64,000 bases of DNA, from sequence record NC_135728.1. The stretch is one strand, 5' to 3'. The notes beneath the pieces are model-generated. The model searched no databases and was not told the origin of the DNA. It worked only from the letters and a program-made list of their open reading frames with translations. This DNA comes from a phage. A program made the translations under genes and the position numbers. Shown piece after piece: positions 2,920 through 37,500 of the stretch; positions within the stretch are counted from its first letter, which is position 1, and the number at the start of each line of letters is the position of its first letter.

Positions 2920-4104
2920 TTAAGCTTTAGCCAAAATGGCGCTAAACTCTTCACCAAACTCTTTTACAATCTTCATCAGGTTTGGGTATGCTTTGATCAG
3001 CTGAGCAACAATCTTGTCACGCCCTTTGCCGATAAGCAAGGCATTTCCTAAGGCATTAGGTTTCATCATCGCCATAAAGACTGAGAATACAAAATCTCGG
3101 TTCTCGTCCTTGAAGTTTTCCCAAAGGAAATCGAGGAAGTTTGCCACGCAGCTGACAAGATCTTCGTCTGAGATACTTGCATTTTCCATCATATTACGAA
3201 TAGCGATACAACCTTCAGATCCAAGAATCCACAAAATGTCTGGCTGCTTAGGACCTACGTATTCTTTGCAACCACCTGCCATAATCCGACCGATTTCAGG
3301 TAAATTGCGTTTCTTGGTGTGGTATGTCCAGATCTCTACCGCTGCAGTGTGACCAATAGCACCTTGCAGAAGAACACGGGCCATAGCGTCAGAAATAATA
3401 CCGCTGTCAAAATCGTGCAAGATGTCAGATGCAGCAACCCAAGATCGTGGTGTGGCAAAAGATGGACAATTAATCTCAGCCATAGCCTCATAATTATCAA
3501 TAGCTGATGGAACTCTTTTCAGATACCCAATTACAGAGGAGTGAACCCCGTTGAGGAATGCGTAGTCCTCAATAAACACCTCTGCATTGCTTGTAACCTC
3601 TACAATGATAAAACGGTTAGCCAGAGGGGCTTCGAGCGCCGAAAGAACCGCACCATCTGTAGAACGGTTACCCGCAGCCACAAAAACAGAACCCTTAGGG
3701 AATGCATAGGTGCCGCACTTGTGGTCAAGCATAATTTGCATTGCAACCTTTTGCAGGTAGTTATCTGCATGAGTGAGCTCATCCAGAAAGATAATTCCGC
3801 TCCAGTCAGGATCCGCAGGCCAAAATTCTGGAATTGCAAACACTGTACGTGTAGTTCCATCCGCTTCTACAGGGATAGGTAGCCCAGATAAGTCGGCAGG
3901 ATCTTTATCTGACAGTCGCACGTCAACAAGGTTGTCATCTCGCTCACCGAACATATTATCAGCGATCTGCTTCATCACCTGGCTTTTACCCACACCCATT
4001 GGTCCCAAAATTAGGACAGATCGGCTATGACGTTGGGCAAACTGAATAATAGCTGGCAACTCACGGACAGTGATTTGACCACTTTCGAATACGTTTCTTG
4101 ACAT
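2920..4104 (-). CDS. AAA+ ATPase, MoxR-like (394 aa)
   Basis: Walker A GPMGVGKS and Walker B IIFLDEL; length and layout typical of MoxR/AAA_5 ATPases. Confidence 0.7.
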   Translation of the reverse strand: MSRNVFESGQITVRELPAIIQFAQRHSRSVLILGPMGVGKSQVMKQIADNMFGERDDNLVDVRLSDKDPADLSGLPIPVEADGTTRTVFAIPEFWPADPDWSGIIFLDELTHADNYLQKVAMQIMLDHKCGTYAFPKGSVFVAAGNRSTDGAVLSALEAPLANRFIIVEVTSNAEVFIEDYAFLNGVHSSVIGYLKRVPSAIDNYEAMAEINCPSFATPRSWVAASDILHDFDSGIISDAMARVLLQGAIGHTAAVEIWTYHTKKRNLPEIGRIMAGGCKEYVGPKQPDILWILGSEGCIAIRNMMENASISDEDLVSCVANFLDFLWENFKDENRDFVFSVFMAMMKPNALGNALLIGKGRDKIVAQLIKAYPNLMKIVKEFGEEFSAILAKA

Positions 4105-4373
4105 TAGTAAAAGTCCTCTACTTGTGTGTAAGTGTTTTCAAAGTTTTCCAAAACAGATATCACATCGAATCTGTCAATATCATACGTGACTCTCCAGTTG
4201 TACGCAACCCTTTCTGCTGTTGCCTCTTCTGGCGCTAGTCGTCTGCTGGCATAAAAGAGTGTTGGAGTACACTTTCTTGCTTGCCCTCTAACTTTCCCAT
4301 AATAATATCTGTGAATATCTTTGTCAAAATTTAACTCTTTTTCTGCACGAAGTTCATATTGCTGGTATAACAT
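4104..4373 (-). CDS. hypothetical protein (89 aa)
   Basis: ORF whose stop overlaps the start of the downstream gene. Confidence 0.45.
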   Translation of the reverse strand: MLYQQYELRAEKELNFDKDIHRYYYGKVRGQARKCTPTLFYASRRLAPEEATAERVAYNWRVTYDIDRFDVISVLENFENTYTQVEDFY

Positions 4374-5058: not shown

Positions 5059-5414
5059 TATTCTACCTCCTCTTCTTTTTCTTCGGCATTAGTTTCATGG
5101 CTACTCCACTCGGGAGTTTCCACCTCGATAGTAAACTCACGCACTACACGGTAATTGCCCATGAAGCGCTCTACTTCGTCAAGGCTTATGGAGAGGCCAT
5201 TGGCAACCAGGTCTGCAGCACCCTCTTCTACCAGGTAGTCCAGATTGGCTTCCAGAGCCTCAGGTTCAAACCCTGTCAATGCAATCAGATAACCTTCCCC
5301 TTCATCAGGGAGGACAATACAGCCCAATTGATTTTCTTTAAAAAGGCAGTGACCATCATTATTGATTGGGTGTTCATTGCAGTACATAGCTGCACGATAA
5401 GTAACTTTAGACAT
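5058..5414 (-). CDS. hypothetical protein; start moved to the internal ATG (MSKVTYRA...)
   Basis: Track ORF begins at a TTG (5435); the ATG at 5414 is preceded by AAGGAGA at good spacing. The start lies inside the 29-bp inverted repeat. Confidence 0.5.
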   Translation of the reverse strand: MSKVTYRAAMYCNEHPINNDGHCLFKENQLGCIVLPDEGEGYLIALTGFEPEALEANLDYLVEEGAADLVANGLSISLDEVERFMGNYRVVREFTIEVETPEWSSHETNAEEKEEEVE

Positions 5415-5419
5415 CGGTA
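5391..5419 (-). repeat. 29-bp perfect inverted repeat, copy A (TACCGATGTCTAAAGTTACTTATCGTGCA in minus sense)
   Basis: Exact reverse-complement match to 7253-7281; spans the start codon and first 8 codons of the 5058-5414 gene. Confidence 0.85.
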
Positions 5420-5427
5420 AGGTCTCC

Positions 5428-5706
5428 TTAGGCAATTGTCATTTTACATTCTTGAAATTTTAACACAAGACGGTGATTGTGTCTAGTGTCTAAAAAGATT
5501 TTTTCAACCATCAGGCACACGGTATAACCGTCCATCTTGTTGACAACAAAATCTCCAGGATGAGGGAGGATGTCTCCCGGATTGGGGAAACATAGTCCAC
5601 TCAGAAAGGCATCGTCAGTGGTGGACTTAATAGATTTCCACACACTGTCTGCCTGAACATGTTCACCGACGTAATATACATTACCACACGCCTTCATCAT
5701 AGTCAA
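5428..5706 (-). CDS. hypothetical protein (92 aa)
   Basis: ORF with ATGA stop/start overlap to the upstream gene. Confidence 0.45.
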   Translation of the reverse strand: MTMMKACGNVYYVGEHVQADSVWKSIKSTTDDAFLSGLCFPNPGDILPHPGDFVVNKMDGYTVCLMVEKIFLDTRHNHRLVLKFQECKMTIA

Positions 5707-6602
5707 ACCCTCGCATAAATTAAACTTGTATCAGTATACTTCTTTAATGGGTAAATATCCTGTCCATAGATGCAATCATTAAACACCTCATCTACCCAAA
5801 GGCTACACTTATATCCCATCATTTCTAAAACACCCATCTCTTCTTCGGTAAACTTATCACCGCTCTTGCAAGATGTCAATACCTCATTCTGAACTCTTGC
5901 TACCTCGAAGCGGTTATTGGCAATATCGCTATTGGCGATCAAATACTCACCTAGAGGGTGTGCGGCATTAAAGATGCACAGTGGACGGCTGACGTAATAG
6001 TCTCCGGGTGTATAAAAATTGTTGAGGTCTTTCACTAGAACATTCTTATCAGTCACTTCATTTATAACATCATGCATATCGCACATCTTTATATGTTTGA
6101 GGATTCCATCCCCCATCACAAAATAAAAACTTGCTGAGACACTTTCGGCATAGATCTTACTAGATCCGTTGTAGTTGTATTTTACTCGGATGCTAACGGG
6201 GGTTTTTCCTGTCGCGTTAGCCATCATCCAAAGAAATGGCAGCTCATACTTCTCCTCTGAGGAAACAAAAGGTGAGGTAGCCAGAGATCGAAAACCTCCA
6301 GAGAAGTTGAAAGTTACAGAACCGCTCCGGCGGTATGATACCGCGTATTCTACTTTTATATCGACGTACCCATTGGAATAGGTGTGTCCTTCATTATCTA
6401 AATATGTCCACTTATCAGACCCAGATACCAATCTACGCTCAATAACCTTCATCACTACAGGAATTAGTGGGTTGGTACAAACCGCTTTTGAAGTAGCTTT
6501 ATCATCTAAAGCCTCGTAAATTGCAGAAAGGATGTCCCCAGCTGAAAGATTGGTTGTTATGTCCTGTTTCCACCGCGTACTAAAACTGTTAAGATTTGCC
6601 AT
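5703..6602 (-). CDS. hypothetical protein (299 aa)
   Basis: ORF with AGGAG RBS about 9 nt upstream of the ATG; first gene of the leftward early block. Confidence 0.55.
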   Translation of the reverse strand: MANLNSFSTRWKQDITTNLSAGDILSAIYEALDDKATSKAVCTNPLIPVVMKVIERRLVSGSDKWTYLDNEGHTYSNGYVDIKVEYAVSYRRSGSVTFNFSGGFRSLATSPFVSSEEKYELPFLWMMANATGKTPVSIRVKYNYNGSSKIYAESVSASFYFVMGDGILKHIKMCDMHDVINEVTDKNVLVKDLNNFYTPGDYYVSRPLCIFNAAHPLGEYLIANSDIANNRFEVARVQNEVLTSCKSGDKFTEEEMGVLEMMGYKCSLWVDEVFNDCIYGQDIYPLKKYTDTSLIYARV

Positions 6603-6642
6603 AAGTAAGTGCTCCTATGTTAGTTTTCTTTCGAATGGGTGC

Positions 6643-6671
6643 ACTATATTGTGGAGTTAGAGTAAAGTCAA
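6643..6671 (-). promoter_or_regulatory. sigma70-like promoter (TTGACT-17-TATAGT) for the leftward early block
   Basis: Minus-sense -35/-10 hexamers with 17-bp spacer in the divergent intergenic region. Confidence 0.45.
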
Positions 6672-6684
6672 CACGTTTTTGATG

Positions 6685-6713
6685 TTGACATCTGTTGAGA
6701 CAATTGATACGAT
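6685..6713 (+). promoter_or_regulatory. sigma70-like promoter (TTGACA-17-TACGAT) for the rightward block
   Basis: Plus-strand consensus -35 with 17-bp spacer and partial -10, back to back with the minus promoter. Confidence 0.4.
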
Positions 6714-6744
6714 TTCTTCACTTACAGAGCACGAGAGACGACTC

Positions 6745-7722
6745 ATGAATCTTGAAAAATATTATACACCAGAAGAGTTAGAGCGCTTGCTCAAAAAATA
6801 TAGACGCAAACAGAATAACGCACGGAAACGAGATATAGAGTTCGACCTGTCATGGGAAGAATACCTCCTATTTGGTAAAAAACTTTTAGGAGATGGAGTA
6901 TGCGACTATACCCTTATACCTTTTGACATGCACACAGATGAAAACGGGCTGGGAAATCCTTTCTACCCATCTCTGGAGCGGATAGATGATGAAGGTCCTT
7001 ATGCGGTTGATAACTGTTGTGTGGTGGGATTGAGATGCAACTCTCTAAAGGACTGTCTGGTAGATAAAAAGACTGCAGTCTTGATTAAAGACGAAACTGA
7101 TCGAAAAATTGTCCAGCAGATGATGCTCCACCTGAGCGAAGAGCGTATGGAGAAATTGAAAGGTGATTATACTTTTGAAGATTTCATCTTGCAATATGGA
7201 ACGGAAGAGGATAAACTAGCACTCTTTGACGAAGAAGAGGAGGAAGATATGCTACCGATGTCTAAAGTTACTTATCGTGCACCCAAGAAGCACATTTCCG
7301 ACATTGTAAACGAGCCTATCACAGAAGAGATTGAAGAAATGACGCAACAGGTGCATGAAGAGGAAAAAGAGACTCAGGAGGTCGAAGAGGAGCTTACAGA
7401 AGAGGTTCCTGCACTACCTGATGATGTTGAGATTGCCAAAGCTTACACTTTCTATTGTCAAACGTTCTACGATGTAGGTATGAAAGTTGATCTGTCGTTC
7501 AGCCAATTTAAGAGTTCGTATATTCGCAAATGCTGTGCTTTAACTGGTGAACGTCTTGGAGCTGGACTTAAACCTCTGTTGGTGACCGACTGGAATAAAG
7601 GTTTCACTAAAGGAAACTTTATGGTAGTATCTCCAATTATGGAGAAAGCTATGACAGATCTTATGAAGACCACCCGCATGACAATGACCGAGTTGGCAGG
7701 TATTTTCAAACACGTTAAATAA
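6745..7722 (+). CDS. hypothetical protein with HNH (His-Me finger)-like motifs
   Basis: Track ORF starts at TTG 6679, upstream of the predicted promoter; first ATG after it is 6745 (MNLEKYY). Motif SLERIDDEGPYAVDNCCVVGLRCNSLK plus an acidic linker; a second in-frame start (MSKVTYRA, 7258) sits in repeat copy B, so this may be two genes. Confidence 0.45.
   Translation: MNLEKYYTPEELERLLKKYRRKQNNARKRDIEFDLSWEEYLLFGKKLLGDGVCDYTLIPFDMHTDENGLGNPFYPSLERIDDEGPYAVDNCCVVGLRCNSLKDCLVDKKTAVLIKDETDRKIVQQMMLHLSEERMEKLKGDYTFEDFILQYGTEEDKLALFDEEEEEDMLPMSKVTYRAPKKHISDIVNEPITEEIEEMTQQVHEEEKETQEVEEELTEEVPALPDDVEIAKAYTFYCQTFYDVGMKVDLSFSQFKSSYIRKCCALTGERLGAGLKPLLVTDWNKGFTKGNFMVVSPIMEKAMTDLMKTTRMTMTELAGIFKHVK
7253..7281 (+). 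repeat. 29-bp perfect inverted repeat, copy B
   Basis: TACCGATGTCTAAAGTTACTTATCGTGCA on the plus strand; identical to the reverse complement of 5391-5419. Confidence 0.85.
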
Positions 7723-7734
7723 TAACAGGGGCCA

Positions 7735-9216
7735 ATGGCCCCTTCTGGAGTTTTAATGGATAGCAGAAGTTCAGAAATCATTGCCTCGCAGAAAGATGAT
7801 GCCCTGAGAATGTTGCAGGCTGCACGTATGTATCTCCTTGAAAAGCTGCCGTTCTATGGCACACTACTGTCAGGGTTGCAGTTCGTAGAAAACCACACAT
7901 GGTGCTCCACCATGGCAACCGACCATAAACGCATCTATTACAGTCCTGAGTTCATTATGGGATTGGCTGATGAACGCAAGGCTATTCTTAAGGCTTCTCT
8001 AACTGACGAGCAGTTTGAGATGGCTGAAGTTTTCTATTCCCCAAAATCTGTGAAAGAGGTGGCCTTCCTTCTGTCACATGAGGTGGGGCATATTATCTGT
8101 GATCACCTAGTCCGTGGTAAAAGCTTTGAGCCGGAACTGTTCAATATTGCTTGTGATCACGTTATCAACACAGGCCTTGTGGTTGACTTTAGCAAACCTC
8201 CTTGTGTTTTCTTCCCGAAGGGGAAAAGCACTACGTTCGTGAAAGGTAAGCCTTTTGGCTTCTTAGCCAGCTGCTACTGCGACATGAAGTTTCATGGATG
8301 GATTGCTGAGAACGTTTATGCAGTTCTTGATAAGCAAAGAGATCAGAATAACGGTAAAAGTAAGAACGGTAAAGGTGAGAACTCTCAAAGTGATAAGCGA
8401 CAAACCGATGATCACATGAGTGGGAACGGTGGCACCAGTGATAATCTTGGAAAGGCTATGGGGTATGATCAGCCACAACCTGTAATCAGCCAATCTGATA
8501 AAGATCAGGCCATGCAGGACTCTGGTGATATGCTGGAGGCAGCAATGCAAGCGTCCGGAGGCCGTTGCCCTGAGGCGGTGCGTGAGTTTGTCAAGAACAG
8601 AGGTAAACCTGTAATCAACTATATAGACATCATTAAGCAACGCATGTTGTCTAAAAGAAAGGCCGAACTGACCTACAGAAAACCTGGTCGCCGATCTGGG
8701 TCTTTGACCAGCACAATGCGAAAAGTTGGGGCTATAAACAAGAACCAGCACGTTATTGTTCCTGGTCGTAATCCGGAAAACACTATAGATATTGTGGTGG
8801 CTTTAGACGTTTCTGGCTCGATCTCTCAAAGAACTTTAAAGAAAATGTTCAATGAAATCACCGGATTGTGCAATCTGTATAAAGAGTTTAAGGTTACAAT
8901 GTTCTGTTGGTCAACTGAGGTTGGAGAGGTTAAAGTATACACTCGCGGCAACATAGACGAGATGATCAACTATGAGGTCCACTCAACATGGGGCACAACA
9001 GCTGCTTGCGTGTTCGAGTATCTGGATGCCAACATACCTAATGCAAAAGATGTCATCGTCCTGACCGACCTATACTTTGAGCATAACTTTGAACAAAAGG
9101 TTGTTGACAACAAGTGGAAAAAGTACGATACTCTATGGGTCCTCACTGAGGGGTATAATAAAAATTATATCCCGAGCTTTGGGAAAACTGTGGAATTAAT
9201 CGAGTACGCTAAGTAA
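7735..9216 (+). CDS. vWA-domain protein with N-terminal HExxH metallopeptidase-like motif (493 aa)
   Basis: HEVGHIICDH zinc-binding motif; C-terminal MIDAS-like VVALDVSGSIS; true start may be the ATG at 7756, since a hairpin overlaps 7726-7744. Confidence 0.65.
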   Translation: MAPSGVLMDSRSSEIIASQKDDALRMLQAARMYLLEKLPFYGTLLSGLQFVENHTWCSTMATDHKRIYYSPEFIMGLADERKAILKASLTDEQFEMAEVFYSPKSVKEVAFLLSHEVGHIICDHLVRGKSFEPELFNIACDHVINTGLVVDFSKPPCVFFPKGKSTTFVKGKPFGFLASCYCDMKFHGWIAENVYAVLDKQRDQNNGKSKNGKGENSQSDKRQTDDHMSGNGGTSDNLGKAMGYDQPQPVISQSDKDQAMQDSGDMLEAAMQASGGRCPEAVREFVKNRGKPVINYIDIIKQRMLSKRKAELTYRKPGRRSGSLTSTMRKVGAINKNQHVIVPGRNPENTIDIVVALDVSGSISQRTLKKMFNEITGLCNLYKEFKVTMFCWSTEVGEVKVYTRGNIDEMINYEVHSTWGTTAACVFEYLDANIPNAKDVIVLTDLYFEHNFEQKVVDNKWKKYDTLWVLTEGYNKNYIPSFGKTVELIEYAK

Positions 9217-34532: not shown

Positions 34533-37500
34533 TATTCAACACTCTCCATCATAAGTTGGGTATCTGTCAGCGCAGAGTTCCAAACTCTTATGTCCTTAAT
34601 ATGACCAAACAAATGTCTTTCTCCTGTTGCCGTTTGACCACCGATACGGATGAAAGCTCCTCCTGCCAGGAACTCCCAAGAAGACTGTGTTTCAGTGCTC
34701 ACCAGTCCGTTAGCAAAAGAGCAAGTTTTACCGTCTTCTTTTATCCTGAACCCCATCTTCAGTTTACGCGCTTTAGCCATCTCGTAGACACGTCTGTTTG
34801 ACCCTCCAATATCGCAGTATGGATACCCATCCTCTGCAATATTTGTTGCAGAACCAAACCCGAGAATAAAAGCTGCGCTCGTCTGGTGTCCTTCTGTGTC
34901 TATAACCCTAGGGGCTGCGTTAGGAGCTTTGCCCCAACCTCTCCAGTTAGCATCCACAGTAGCGGCGATAGTGAACGGTCTAGGTGCTAAGTTATCCGTC
35001 ATCGGGAATTTGCAAAGGTCTGCCGCTCTAGTTACAGGTGAAGATCCTGTGGGAATAAACGAGGACTCGCAAGAACCTAACTCAAATTGAGGTATTGCAA
35101 CATCAACCCAATCCCCTACAACATGCTGAGCACCTTCAGGTGGAGAAATCTGGAACTGGCACCCGATATTCTTGTCAGAGGCCACTGCCTCAAACGTAGC
35201 GGCAATCCTTACCCAAGCAGGTCCGGCTGTTTGCCATCTCTCAGCTTTTACTTTAATTCTCCCAGCTGCACCACCTGTTGTTTTAACTTCAAGTGTTGAC
35301 AGGTTAACATAAGCGTCACCTTGGAATACTGTGGTGGATCCGTCATACATGTCGAATCTTACACGTAATCTCTGGTTCGCTTTACCTCCCCTTGCAATAA
35401 TAGACCCAGTACAGAATTTCTCAGCACCTGTCACATCGGCACCTCTGGTGGCTGGAACTGTAGCAAGGTTTAACGCTGTTGTTTCCACACCGGATGCAGT
35501 GTTTACTGTAAATCTTGCACCTTTTGTGCCGTTGGTGTTTGTTACAGTACCACCAACAGTAATCTGTTGACTGGCTCCCCATTTACTAGGGTCTTCACTG
35601 TTAAGCATTAGGTTTGTCCTTTGCCCTTCAATAAGCAGACCATCTCTTTCAAACCGAGGATGATCGTTCTGAGCAGTAACCATCACACCGCGTTTAGAAA
35701 AGTATGTTGCTGTAGAAGGTCTGGAGAATACCATCTCTCCCTCACCAAGTGCAGGTTTTAAGTTGGAGGTCAAAGGTAACCAAAGATCAGGCATAACTGG
35801 GGCGGTTGTGCTTTCCGGGAAGCTTGTTCTCTTCCAAGGACTCCAAGCCATTCCACTACCAGTGTTATTATAATACCTTTCCCATGTTCCACCAAGGTAC
35901 ATCTTGTAGATCTGAATACAGCCCGTGCCCTCGTTAGCAGAGTTTCTAAGCACAATCAGCGTACCAGCCATCTGCTGTCCAGGCGGGTAATGTCTTTCAG
36001 CTGTAGCGTTAGCATTCGCCTCTTGATGGTAGATACCTTCACGATCTGCTTTATAATCGTTAAGGTCGCTATTCCCCAGTCCTTGACCACGGTGCTGAAT
36101 AACCTTGTTCCACGCTCTGTGATTTCCCTGCTCTATGGAACGGGTATATAGCTGATCTAATCGACCTGCTATCTGGAAAGCATAGTTCCCAGAGAATGCC
36201 ACAGACAACCCGCCAACAACCATCGAACCTTCAGGCCCGTTAACATTACCAGCCATTATTTTAGAAGGGTTGTTATTCCCGAACTGGTTGTTCCAGTCTG
36301 CACCTGTGTGGCATACAAAACCACCAGGAGCTGAGAAAGTGCCATCTTTGTTGAAGTTGTAGAATCTATGGGATGAACCAACAACATCTCTAACAATGAC
36401 CTGACCAGCCTCTGGGGTAGACCTGAACTCTGCCTGACCTTTGAGACCAGCACCATTACCGCATTTAGAGGTAAATGTACCGTTAGTTAAGTCCTCTGTC
36501 CCATCTGATGCACACTGGAATCCTGCATTAGAGAATAAAGCCTTTCTAGGGCTGCCGTAGCACAAATAGTCAAGACCGTCTGCCCATAGCTCGACTTTTG
36601 GCATATTCATTTTGCTCATCACAGCATAGCGTTCAGCAGTGCCTATATAGTGCCACTGTGTACCGCCGCCAGTGTAGAATCCAGAGGTACCTTTGAAGTC
36701 AACAATAGGTCTGGTGTTGGTATTGTTATCTCCAAGAACAGCAAGATTCAAATCTGCCGACTGGAGAGGTGCAACAAACTTAACCCCGTCCTGATTGTTT
36801 GTTACAGAACCAACCTGGTAGTCTTGTTCTTTGGTAAACACCTCTAAAACATTTCTACTTGCGTATATGCTGACAGGGAAAGCACGCGCCTCTGCATAGA
36901 AAGCAACATATTCTTGTTTACCCCTTGTTGGAGCAACCATCCCAAGAATTGCTTTTTCATTCTGGTAGAAATTTACTACTCCGTAGAAAGAGTCCCCTCT
37001 ATCTGTCCACCCACCAGTTCTATAATGACACTGTAAGGTAGCACAGTTCATGGGGTCACCACCAGATGACGACCTAGTAACTATGGTAATATCGGTGCCA
37101 GTAGCTGGAGCATAATACGGATCTGTTCTAACTATAATTGGGTAGTATTTCCCATCTTCCATCCCTGCGGTTCTTGGCAGCGTTAAGAAATCTTTTACGC
37201 CTGCAGCTATAGGAACTCTAAACAGATTCTGAGCCTCTGCCAAAGTTGTAGCCCCAGTACCACCTGCGGCTTGCGGTAAAGGTTCCCACTTGGCCTTCCG
37301 GTTGTTATAAACACCCCATTCCAGAGTGCCGTTACCGGATTCATCCATCCCGCCATCCCAGATGACCATCTTGGCGGCTTTCTTGGATCCCCAGAAGCCT
37401 CTTTCTGCTCCTGAACTACGGATCCACTCTCCGAGTCCCCAGTTTGTCAGCTGACCAGTAAGATCCCCAACCTGCATGTATTTAGGGCAGTCTAGCACGC

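Follow-up and report, generated by a model that had tools for sequence, protein, structure and literature searches.

A putative back-to-back promoter pair, already predicted in phage rV5, in the 142-bp divergent gap of an rV5-like coliphage

The closest described system is phage rV5, in which two promoters, P010 and P011, have already been predicted at the same locus (Kropinski et al. 2013, Virol J 10:76). Table S4 of that work places P010 at 6636..6681 on the minus strand and P011 at 6685..6713 on the plus strand, the latter with its extended −10 marked and found by eye, not by MEME (Virol J 10:76). Throughout the rV5 genome the promoters show extensive homology to the E. coli consensus; four transcription units were proposed, including genes 10-1-238-164 and genes 11-26, and the authors speculated on an early-to-late switch involving gp11 (Virol J 10:76). 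Early promoters of Certrevirus have the consensus AAAA(N3-4)TGTTGAC(N17-19)TATAAT, and no RNA polymerase gene was found in Certrevirus CB7 (PMC7344957). For Vequintavirinae phages, our literature search found neither mapped transcription starts nor RNA-seq or in vitro transcription; the RNA-seq of a PNAS 2026 paper concerns a Tequintavirus.

We compared these predictions with the window, that is, the whole 64-kb stretch of phage DNA analysed here. The coordinates (6685..6713) and the sequence (TTGACATCTGTTGAGACAATTGATACGAT) of rV5 P011 are identical to those of the window, and P010 has the same hexamers and differs in its spacer alone. Both sites are also annotated at equivalent positions in phage Gotham (GenBank MT682716) as PhagePromoter predictions. 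The rV5 and Gotham entries are thus predictions as well, and they otherwise show no substantive difference from the window pair. Since the pair was predicted for rV5 in 2013 at the same coordinates, the observation is correct, and the divergent promoter pair is an ordinary, already published feature. Mildly new are the following: the pair is conserved throughout the subfamily, the spacing of its −35 hexamers takes a 3-bp and a 13-bp form, and the second divergent junction has a rightward partner that is likely unreported. What we add to the earlier predictions is a chance test, a phylogenetic footprint, cross-genus conservation and evidence on a start codon.

The region 5600-7800 matched 117 phage records at an identity of at least 85%, all of them rV5-like coliphages of the genus Vequintavirus. 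The top matches were Gotham (99.9%) and FFH2 (99.8%), and the FFH2 coordinates are identical to ours, with the gap 6603-6744 lying between ORF10 (5703-6602, minus) and ORF11 (6745-7722, plus). The initial annotation had described this 142-bp gap as separating two oppositely oriented gene blocks, which agrees with the gene map, where the gap is the sole divergent junction in the first 50 kb. Its flanking genes are as follows.

5703..6602, minus strand: ORF10, first gene of the leftward unit (phrog_12338, function unknown).
6745..7722, plus strand: ORF11 (rV5 gp11), first gene of the rightward unit, Srd-like.

Some records name ORF10 a fucosyltransferase (alpha 1-3), without Pfam support. The naming of ORF11 is inconsistent among records (anti-sigma factor, anti-termination protein or HNH endonuclease), and its PHROG matches comprise HNH families and Srd or "decoy of sigma-70" families. 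No Pfam domain was found in ORF10 or ORF11 by the domain scan, and a sequence search of the PDB with ORF11 gave no match. ORF12 (7735-9216, plus) carries the PHROG label "HNH endonuclease", and its Pfam matches are a DUF2201 metallopeptidase and a VWA-like protein. On the opposite arm of the divergent pair, ORF4 (2920-4104, minus) encodes a MoxR-type AAA ATPase. MoxR-type ATPases and VWA proteins commonly work as partners, and their genes are usually co-operonic in bacteria. Sixteen unannotated GenBank records titled "Campylobacter phage" (host Campylobacter jejuni) also match the region 5600-7800, those listed at 91-100% identity. Because the matching region is that of an rV5-like E. coli phage, the Campylobacter host label seems doubtful.

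Our analysis on the gap found the hexamers of a leftward promoter, TTGACT-17-TATAGT (6671..6643, minus), and of a rightward promoter, TTGACA-17-TACGAT (6685..6713, plus), exactly where the initial annotation had placed them. The elements, together with the starts and ribosome binding sites predicted around them, are listed below.

6666..6671, minus strand: leftward −35, TTGACT (rV5 P010, in rV5 Table S4), with TG in front, giving an extended −35 TGTTGAC.
6643..6648, minus strand: leftward −10, TATAGT, after a spacer at 6649-6665.
6636, minus strand: predicted leftward start, an A 7 nt past the −10, giving a 34-nt leader (from sequence geometry).
6612..6616, minus strand: Shine-Dalgarno sequence AGGAG of ORF10, 9 nt ahead of the ATG at 6602..6600.
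6685..6690, plus strand: rightward −35, TTGACA (rV5 P011, in rV5 Table S4).
6705..6713, plus strand: rightward extended −10, TG (6705-6706), a, and TACGAT (6708-6713), with the spacer at 6691-6707.
6720, plus strand: predicted rightward start, an A 7 nt past the −10, giving a 25-nt leader (from the same geometry).
6733..6738, plus strand: weak Shine-Dalgarno-like GAGAGA, 6 nt ahead of the ATG at 6745.

On the plus strand the gap reads ...GCACTATA(6648)-17 bp-AGTCAA(6671)-CACGTTTTTGATG-TTGACA(6690)-17 bp-TACGAT(6713)... The two promoters had been described as about 14 bp apart. They are indeed this close, with an actual gap between the −35 hexamers of 13 bp (6672-6684); 14 is the start-to-start distance of the hexamers. 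In the consensus scan each promoter scored 10/12 with a 17-bp spacer, and neither −10 is perfect (TATAGT leftward, TACGAT rightward); most relatives have TAAGAT as the rightward −10. Both promoters thus have what is expected of the sigma-70 type, namely hexamers near TTGACA/TATAAT (A at position 2, T at position 6), a spacer within 16-18 bp, and a same-strand gene downstream with space for a leader and a ribosome binding site. The Murica record annotates ribosome binding sites at the position equivalent to the ORF10 AGGAG and at the equivalent of 6735-6737. Lying on opposite strands in a gap between divergent genes, with cores that do not overlap, the promoters form a back-to-back divergent pair (Beck and Warren class). 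The two −10 elements (6648 to 6708) are separated by 59 bp and the predicted starts by about 84 bp.

The gap was shuffled 20,000 times with its dinucleotides preserved, and sites scoring at least 10/12 were counted. Such sites occurred on the plus strand in 2.65% of the shuffled gaps, on the minus strand in 1.28% and on both strands in 0.035%, and a divergent non-crossing pair in none of the 20,000. The whole 64-kb window holds one divergent pair (at most 60 bp apart), which is the pair of this gap; 6% of the shuffled 64-kb windows held any. Sites scoring at least 10/12 are enriched nearly three-fold: the window has 43 of them and the shuffles 15.8 +/- 2.8. Several of them fall within coding sequence (first 50 kb), such as the 11/12 sites at 4327 (minus), 10576 (plus) and 13022 (plus), the last of which is rV5 P025. 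An exact copy of TCAAGTGTTGACA at 35289, in a tail-fibre gene, has no −10 partner on either strand and was discarded as a chance match.

The window was then aligned to seven relatives from GenBank that are 85-97% identical to it (8 sequences), and two IMG/VR contigs were added later, which gave 10 Vequintavirus sequences in total. Among the 10, neither −35 hexamer has a variable column (0/6 each), and each −10 hexamer has one (1/6 each). The spacers vary in 12/17 columns (leftward) and 10/17 (rightward), and the 13 bp between the −35 hexamers in 5/13. Altogether 2/24 hexamer columns are variable versus 22/34 spacer columns (Fisher p = 1.3e-5), the power of this footprint being limited because the sequences diverge by 3-15% only. 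The extended −10 TG is retained in 8/8 sequences of the first alignment, and the leftward discriminator (6636-6642) is invariant in the Vequintavirus alignment. Hexamers kept while spacers drift is the pattern that would be expected from working promoters.

A tblastn search with ORF11 gave homologs that are 23-40% identical to it, among them those of Seunavirus, Mydovirus and Avunavirus. The rightward block again opens with the homolog in SPLA5a, EC152, KpS8, Ro1 and Av-05, where the divergent gap beside it measures 127-133 bp; for Serratia phage ChuuTotoro the figure is 122 bp, and four small genes separate this gap from the ORF11 homolog. All six gaps contain a rightward TTGACA-16/17-nATAnT (10-11/12). 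Three base pairs away lies a leftward −35, TTGATT or TTGACT, with a −10-like TATnnT/TACnnT 17 bp on (8-9/12). The same back-to-back layout was found at 17 IMG/VR loci. A clade at 65% identity, which retains the central T5 tract, and two contigs at 28-29% identity have this layout. Taken together, the three genera, ChuuTotoro, the clade and the two contigs have a rightward TTGACA-16/17-nnnnnT (9-11/12) and a leftward TTGATT, TTGACT, TTGACG or TTGATA followed by a 16/17-bp spacer (8-10/12), and the rightward TTGACA stands at the equivalent place in every genus examined. As the leftward partner is weak (8-9/12) in other genera, the strength and use of the leftward promoter may differ among genera. 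Nor is it clear that the genera share one leftward gene, because only a 32-residue patch of ORF10 aligns with the leftward first gene of Seunavirus (E = 2e-5).

A second divergent junction lies just outside the window, at FFH2 66619-66718 (L035 2619-2718), between ORF74 and ORF75, which correspond to rV5 genes 81 and 82. It is of like design, with a 3-bp gap between the hexamers (TTTCAA-GTG-TTGACA), a leftward TTGAAA-17-TATACT (10/12) and a rightward TTGACA-17-TGgCAGGAT (9/12, extended −10). The rV5 paper reports leftward P081 only at the genes 81/82 junction and found no bidirectional promoters there (Virol J 10:76). This junction is absent in other genera, where the ORF74 homolog points the same way as the RNA-ligase gene. 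The IMG/VR loci retrieved through the RNA-ligase-like ORF75 (L036-L052) were uninformative, since all but L036 had only 41-46% identity to the query and most of the contigs were far shorter than a genome of the Vequintavirinae.

A perfect 29-nt inverted repeat (TACCGATGTCTAAAGTTACTTATCGTGCA) flanks the promoter region, its arms at 5391-5419 and 7253-7281 with 1833 nt between them. The first arm spans the start codon and first eight codons of ORF8 (MSKVTYRA), and the second lies in frame within the acidic linker of ORF11 (LPMSKVTYRA), with microhomology at its flanks (CCnATG / ATCGTG). Relatives at 91% identity keep the ORF8 copy and have another ORF11 linker (SPMQDFKNFMANRG...), so the ORF11 copy is a lineage-specific ectopic patch.

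Given the motifs in the gap, their improbability by chance and their conservation, we consider two separate promoters of the sigma-70 type, back to back within the gap, very probable; the host RNA polymerase holoenzyme, unmodified, would recognise both. In the leftward direction, TGTTGACT-17-TATAGT with its start at about 6636 would drive ORF10 to ORF1 (rIIA), and by the transcription-unit map of rV5 this unit would continue past the genome end. The rightward promoter, TGTTGACA-17-TGnTACGAT with its start at about 6720, would drive ORF11 (Srd-like), ORF12 (VWA/metallopeptidase) and small genes, up to the bidirectional terminator near 13.7 kb. Phages of this type appear to rely on the host RNA polymerase, as no RNA polymerase gene was found in CB7 and the promoters of rV5 are similar to the E. 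coli consensus. The host holoenzyme would then bind both promoters on the incoming phage DNA, and both should fire upon DNA entry, because they are near-consensus sigma-70 promoters at the window's sole divergent junction, in a phage with this apparent reliance. We infer the early timing of both blocks from gene content and promoter type.

With non-overlapping cores and about 84 bp between the predicted starts, the two promoters could in principle be occupied at once. Only their alpha-CTD/UP zones (−40 to −55) would overlap, in the region of the A5/T5 tract that they share. The layout had been said to allow coupled regulation of both blocks, and by analogy it is permissive of it; any such coupling might run through the shared UP-like tract or through the negative supercoiling behind each departing polymerase. 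A possible reason for co-expression is that the ORF4 MoxR-type ATPase and the ORF12 VWA/metallopeptidase lie one on each arm, and co-expression would make sense because the two kinds of protein are usually partners.

The abutting −35 hexamers might instead act as one phase-locked module, through cooperative or exclusive loading of two host polymerases or as a single symmetric target of a phage factor that would shut down the two early units together, and would then not be independent promoters. We regard this as unlikely. The idea comes from the geometry: most Vequintavirinae have 3-4 bp between the hexamers (3 bp for Seunavirus, Mydovirus and Avunavirus; L034 has 4 bp), and 13-14 bp are found in Vequintavirus (13 bp) and its sister clade at 65% identity (13-14 bp), which from centre to centre makes about one or two turns of the helix. 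At L033 the gap is 25 bp. The second divergent junction again has the 3-bp form.

A somewhat smaller chance is given to an operator that would be superimposed on the two promoters, where a dimeric phage or host regulator covers both −35 elements and switches the two early units off (or on) together. The candidate sequence is as follows.

6667..6689: palindrome GTCAACA-N9-TGTTGAC, made by the two extended −35 motifs.

The palindrome is perfect with 7-bp arms across both −35 elements, and its centre is the T5/A5 tract at 6676-6680, which lies at about −40 to −44 from the leftward and from the rightward predicted start. The 13 bp between the hexamers are also less variable than the 17-bp spacers, the arms of L004 are altered complementarily (GTCAAC..GTTGAC to GTCAAT..ATTGAC), and the hexamer gap of 3-4 or 13-14 bp, found in all lineages but one, places the hexamers roughly one or two helical turns apart from centre to centre. 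The early-to-late switch with gp11 on which the rV5 authors speculated would fit an operator too. However, TG stands directly 5′ of TTGAC in both promoters (gTG-TTGACT, aTG-TTGACA), as it does ahead of the −35 in 8/26 single rV5 promoters (p = 1.3e-4; 12/26 have an AAAA run just upstream) and in the TGTTGAC of the Certrevirus consensus. Because two copies of this usual extended −35 motif yield the palindrome, it requires no extra explanation. Besides, the palindrome occurs once in the 64-kb window, where matches with three mismatches are at chance level (4 found, 4.1 expected), and a scan of the six neighbouring proteins ORF4 and ORF8-ORF12 revealed no HTH or repressor domain. Other genera keep arms of 4-5 bp only, as any two abutting −35 elements produce, and the exceptional lineage (L033) has a hexamer gap of 25 bp. 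The complementary change in L004 is a single event that was noticed post hoc. An operator set, or a switch of the lambda OR type, was considered and rejected; there are no repeated operator sites in the window, and the PHROG families matched by ORF10 and ORF11 are not HTH repressors.

It is very improbable that one motif only is a working promoter while the other is fortuitous or vestigial and its block is transcribed from elsewhere. Doubt about single motifs arises from the leftward partners of other genera, which reach 8-9/12 only, and from P011, which MEME missed in rV5. Yet within Vequintavirus both −35 hexamers are invariant and both −10 hexamers nearly so while the spacers drift, leaders and ribosome binding sites are correctly placed for both promoters, and the gap is the sole place from which either block could be initiated without antisense read-through.

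The next alternative concerns the start of ORF11. It had been noted that the rightward promoter falls inside the mechanical ORF 6679-7722, which opens at TTG 6679, and that the gene would accordingly start at ATG 6745. Our investigation confirmed the first statement and supports the second. If TTG 6679 or ATG 6682 were the true start, the plus-strand motif would be coding and the real rightward promoter would lie further left; the frame is indeed open from 6679 onward, and the SophiaRose GenBank record gives this long form. But the chance that this is so is close to nil. The codon-position bias of substitutions begins at 6745: variable columns are distributed 10/9/8 over the three codon positions upstream of it (p = 0.83), against 14/5/49 downstream (p = 1e-13), a strong third-position bias. 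ATG 6682 is missing in 6/9 relatives (L004-L007, L018, L019), of which L004 also lacks TTG 6679, and the sole upstream in-frame start common to all relatives is the TTG of the −35 hexamer. No Shine-Dalgarno sequence was found ahead of 6679 or 6682. In six other Vequintavirinae loci (five from named genera, and ChuuTotoro) an in-frame stop precedes the equivalent ATG by 6-30 nt. Homologs and profile likewise begin with the short form, the ORF11 homologs aligning from its residue 1-2 and the PHROG 3118 match beginning at residue 25 of the long form.

Records that start ORF11 at the equivalent ATG are those of FFH2, Murica, Gotham, ECP32, FV3 and typing phage 4, and the JEP1 coordinates agree. 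Apart from SophiaRose, the exception is V18, whose record uses a later start. V18 (L008) has a 1-nt deletion in an A run (CTC-AAAAAT) at the equivalent of about 6790-6797, early in ORF11, which explains why its annotated gene is truncated and starts about 160 nt later; the deletion is a genuine frameshift or else a sequencing error in the homopolymer. The start of ORF11 is thus settled at 6745, contrary to the mechanical ORF call and to one GenBank record.

Finally, there is practically no likelihood that the inverted repeat serves to terminate transcription or as a structured RNA and is not promoter sequence: a terminator scan does report 6689..6667 on the minus strand, where the fold has a z-score of −2.2, but the repeat makes a weak hairpin (−8.6 to −8.8 kcal/mol, z-score −0.57 on the plus strand, 3 G-C pairs, poor T tail), no gene runs into it from left or right, and it would stay untranscribed because it lies upstream of both predicted starts; an Rfam search of 6300-7000 gave no match.

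The reading as two separate host-recognised promoters therefore gains comparative support for a pair that until now was a matter of consensus matching only, and it has little import beyond annotation. Should the spacing rule of the −35 hexamers be functional, it would add modestly to what is known about the design of divergent promoters. To phage engineers the gap of 142 bp would offer a compact bidirectional promoter cassette for the host polymerase, conserved in a therapeutically used phage group.

Compared with the early promoters of Certrevirus, both window promoters contain the TGTTGAC. The leftward one also has the A tract, reading AAAAA-CG-TGTTGACT-17-TATAGT, whereas the rightward one has a T tract upstream instead, TTTTT-GA-TGTTGACA, which is the same tract on the other strand. 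The Certrevirus promoters are single and concentrated in the likely early region, whereas those of the window form a divergent pair.

Symmetric bidirectional promoters, described by Warman and colleagues in 2021, reportedly share a −10 region, with starts about 18 bp apart. The window resembles them in that a short region would give divergent transcription, but overlapping −10 elements are absent from it; the two promoters have separate −35 and −10 elements, and about 84 bp lie between the predicted starts. In phage lambda, the starts of PR and PRM are about 82 bp apart, and polymerase-polymerase interference is known. At ilvY/ilvC, the coupling of back-to-back promoters by supercoiling has been established (PMC4469952). 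In contrast to these systems, neither an operator set nor an adjacent regulator gene was found in the window, and the window phage is virulent, with no recognisable repressor among the two flanking genes. What the window pair shares with ilvY/ilvC and lambda PR/PRM is the arrangement itself: sigma-70 promoters on opposite strands that would fire in opposite directions, outward from the gap between them, with cores that do not overlap and, in the window, starts about 84 bp apart.
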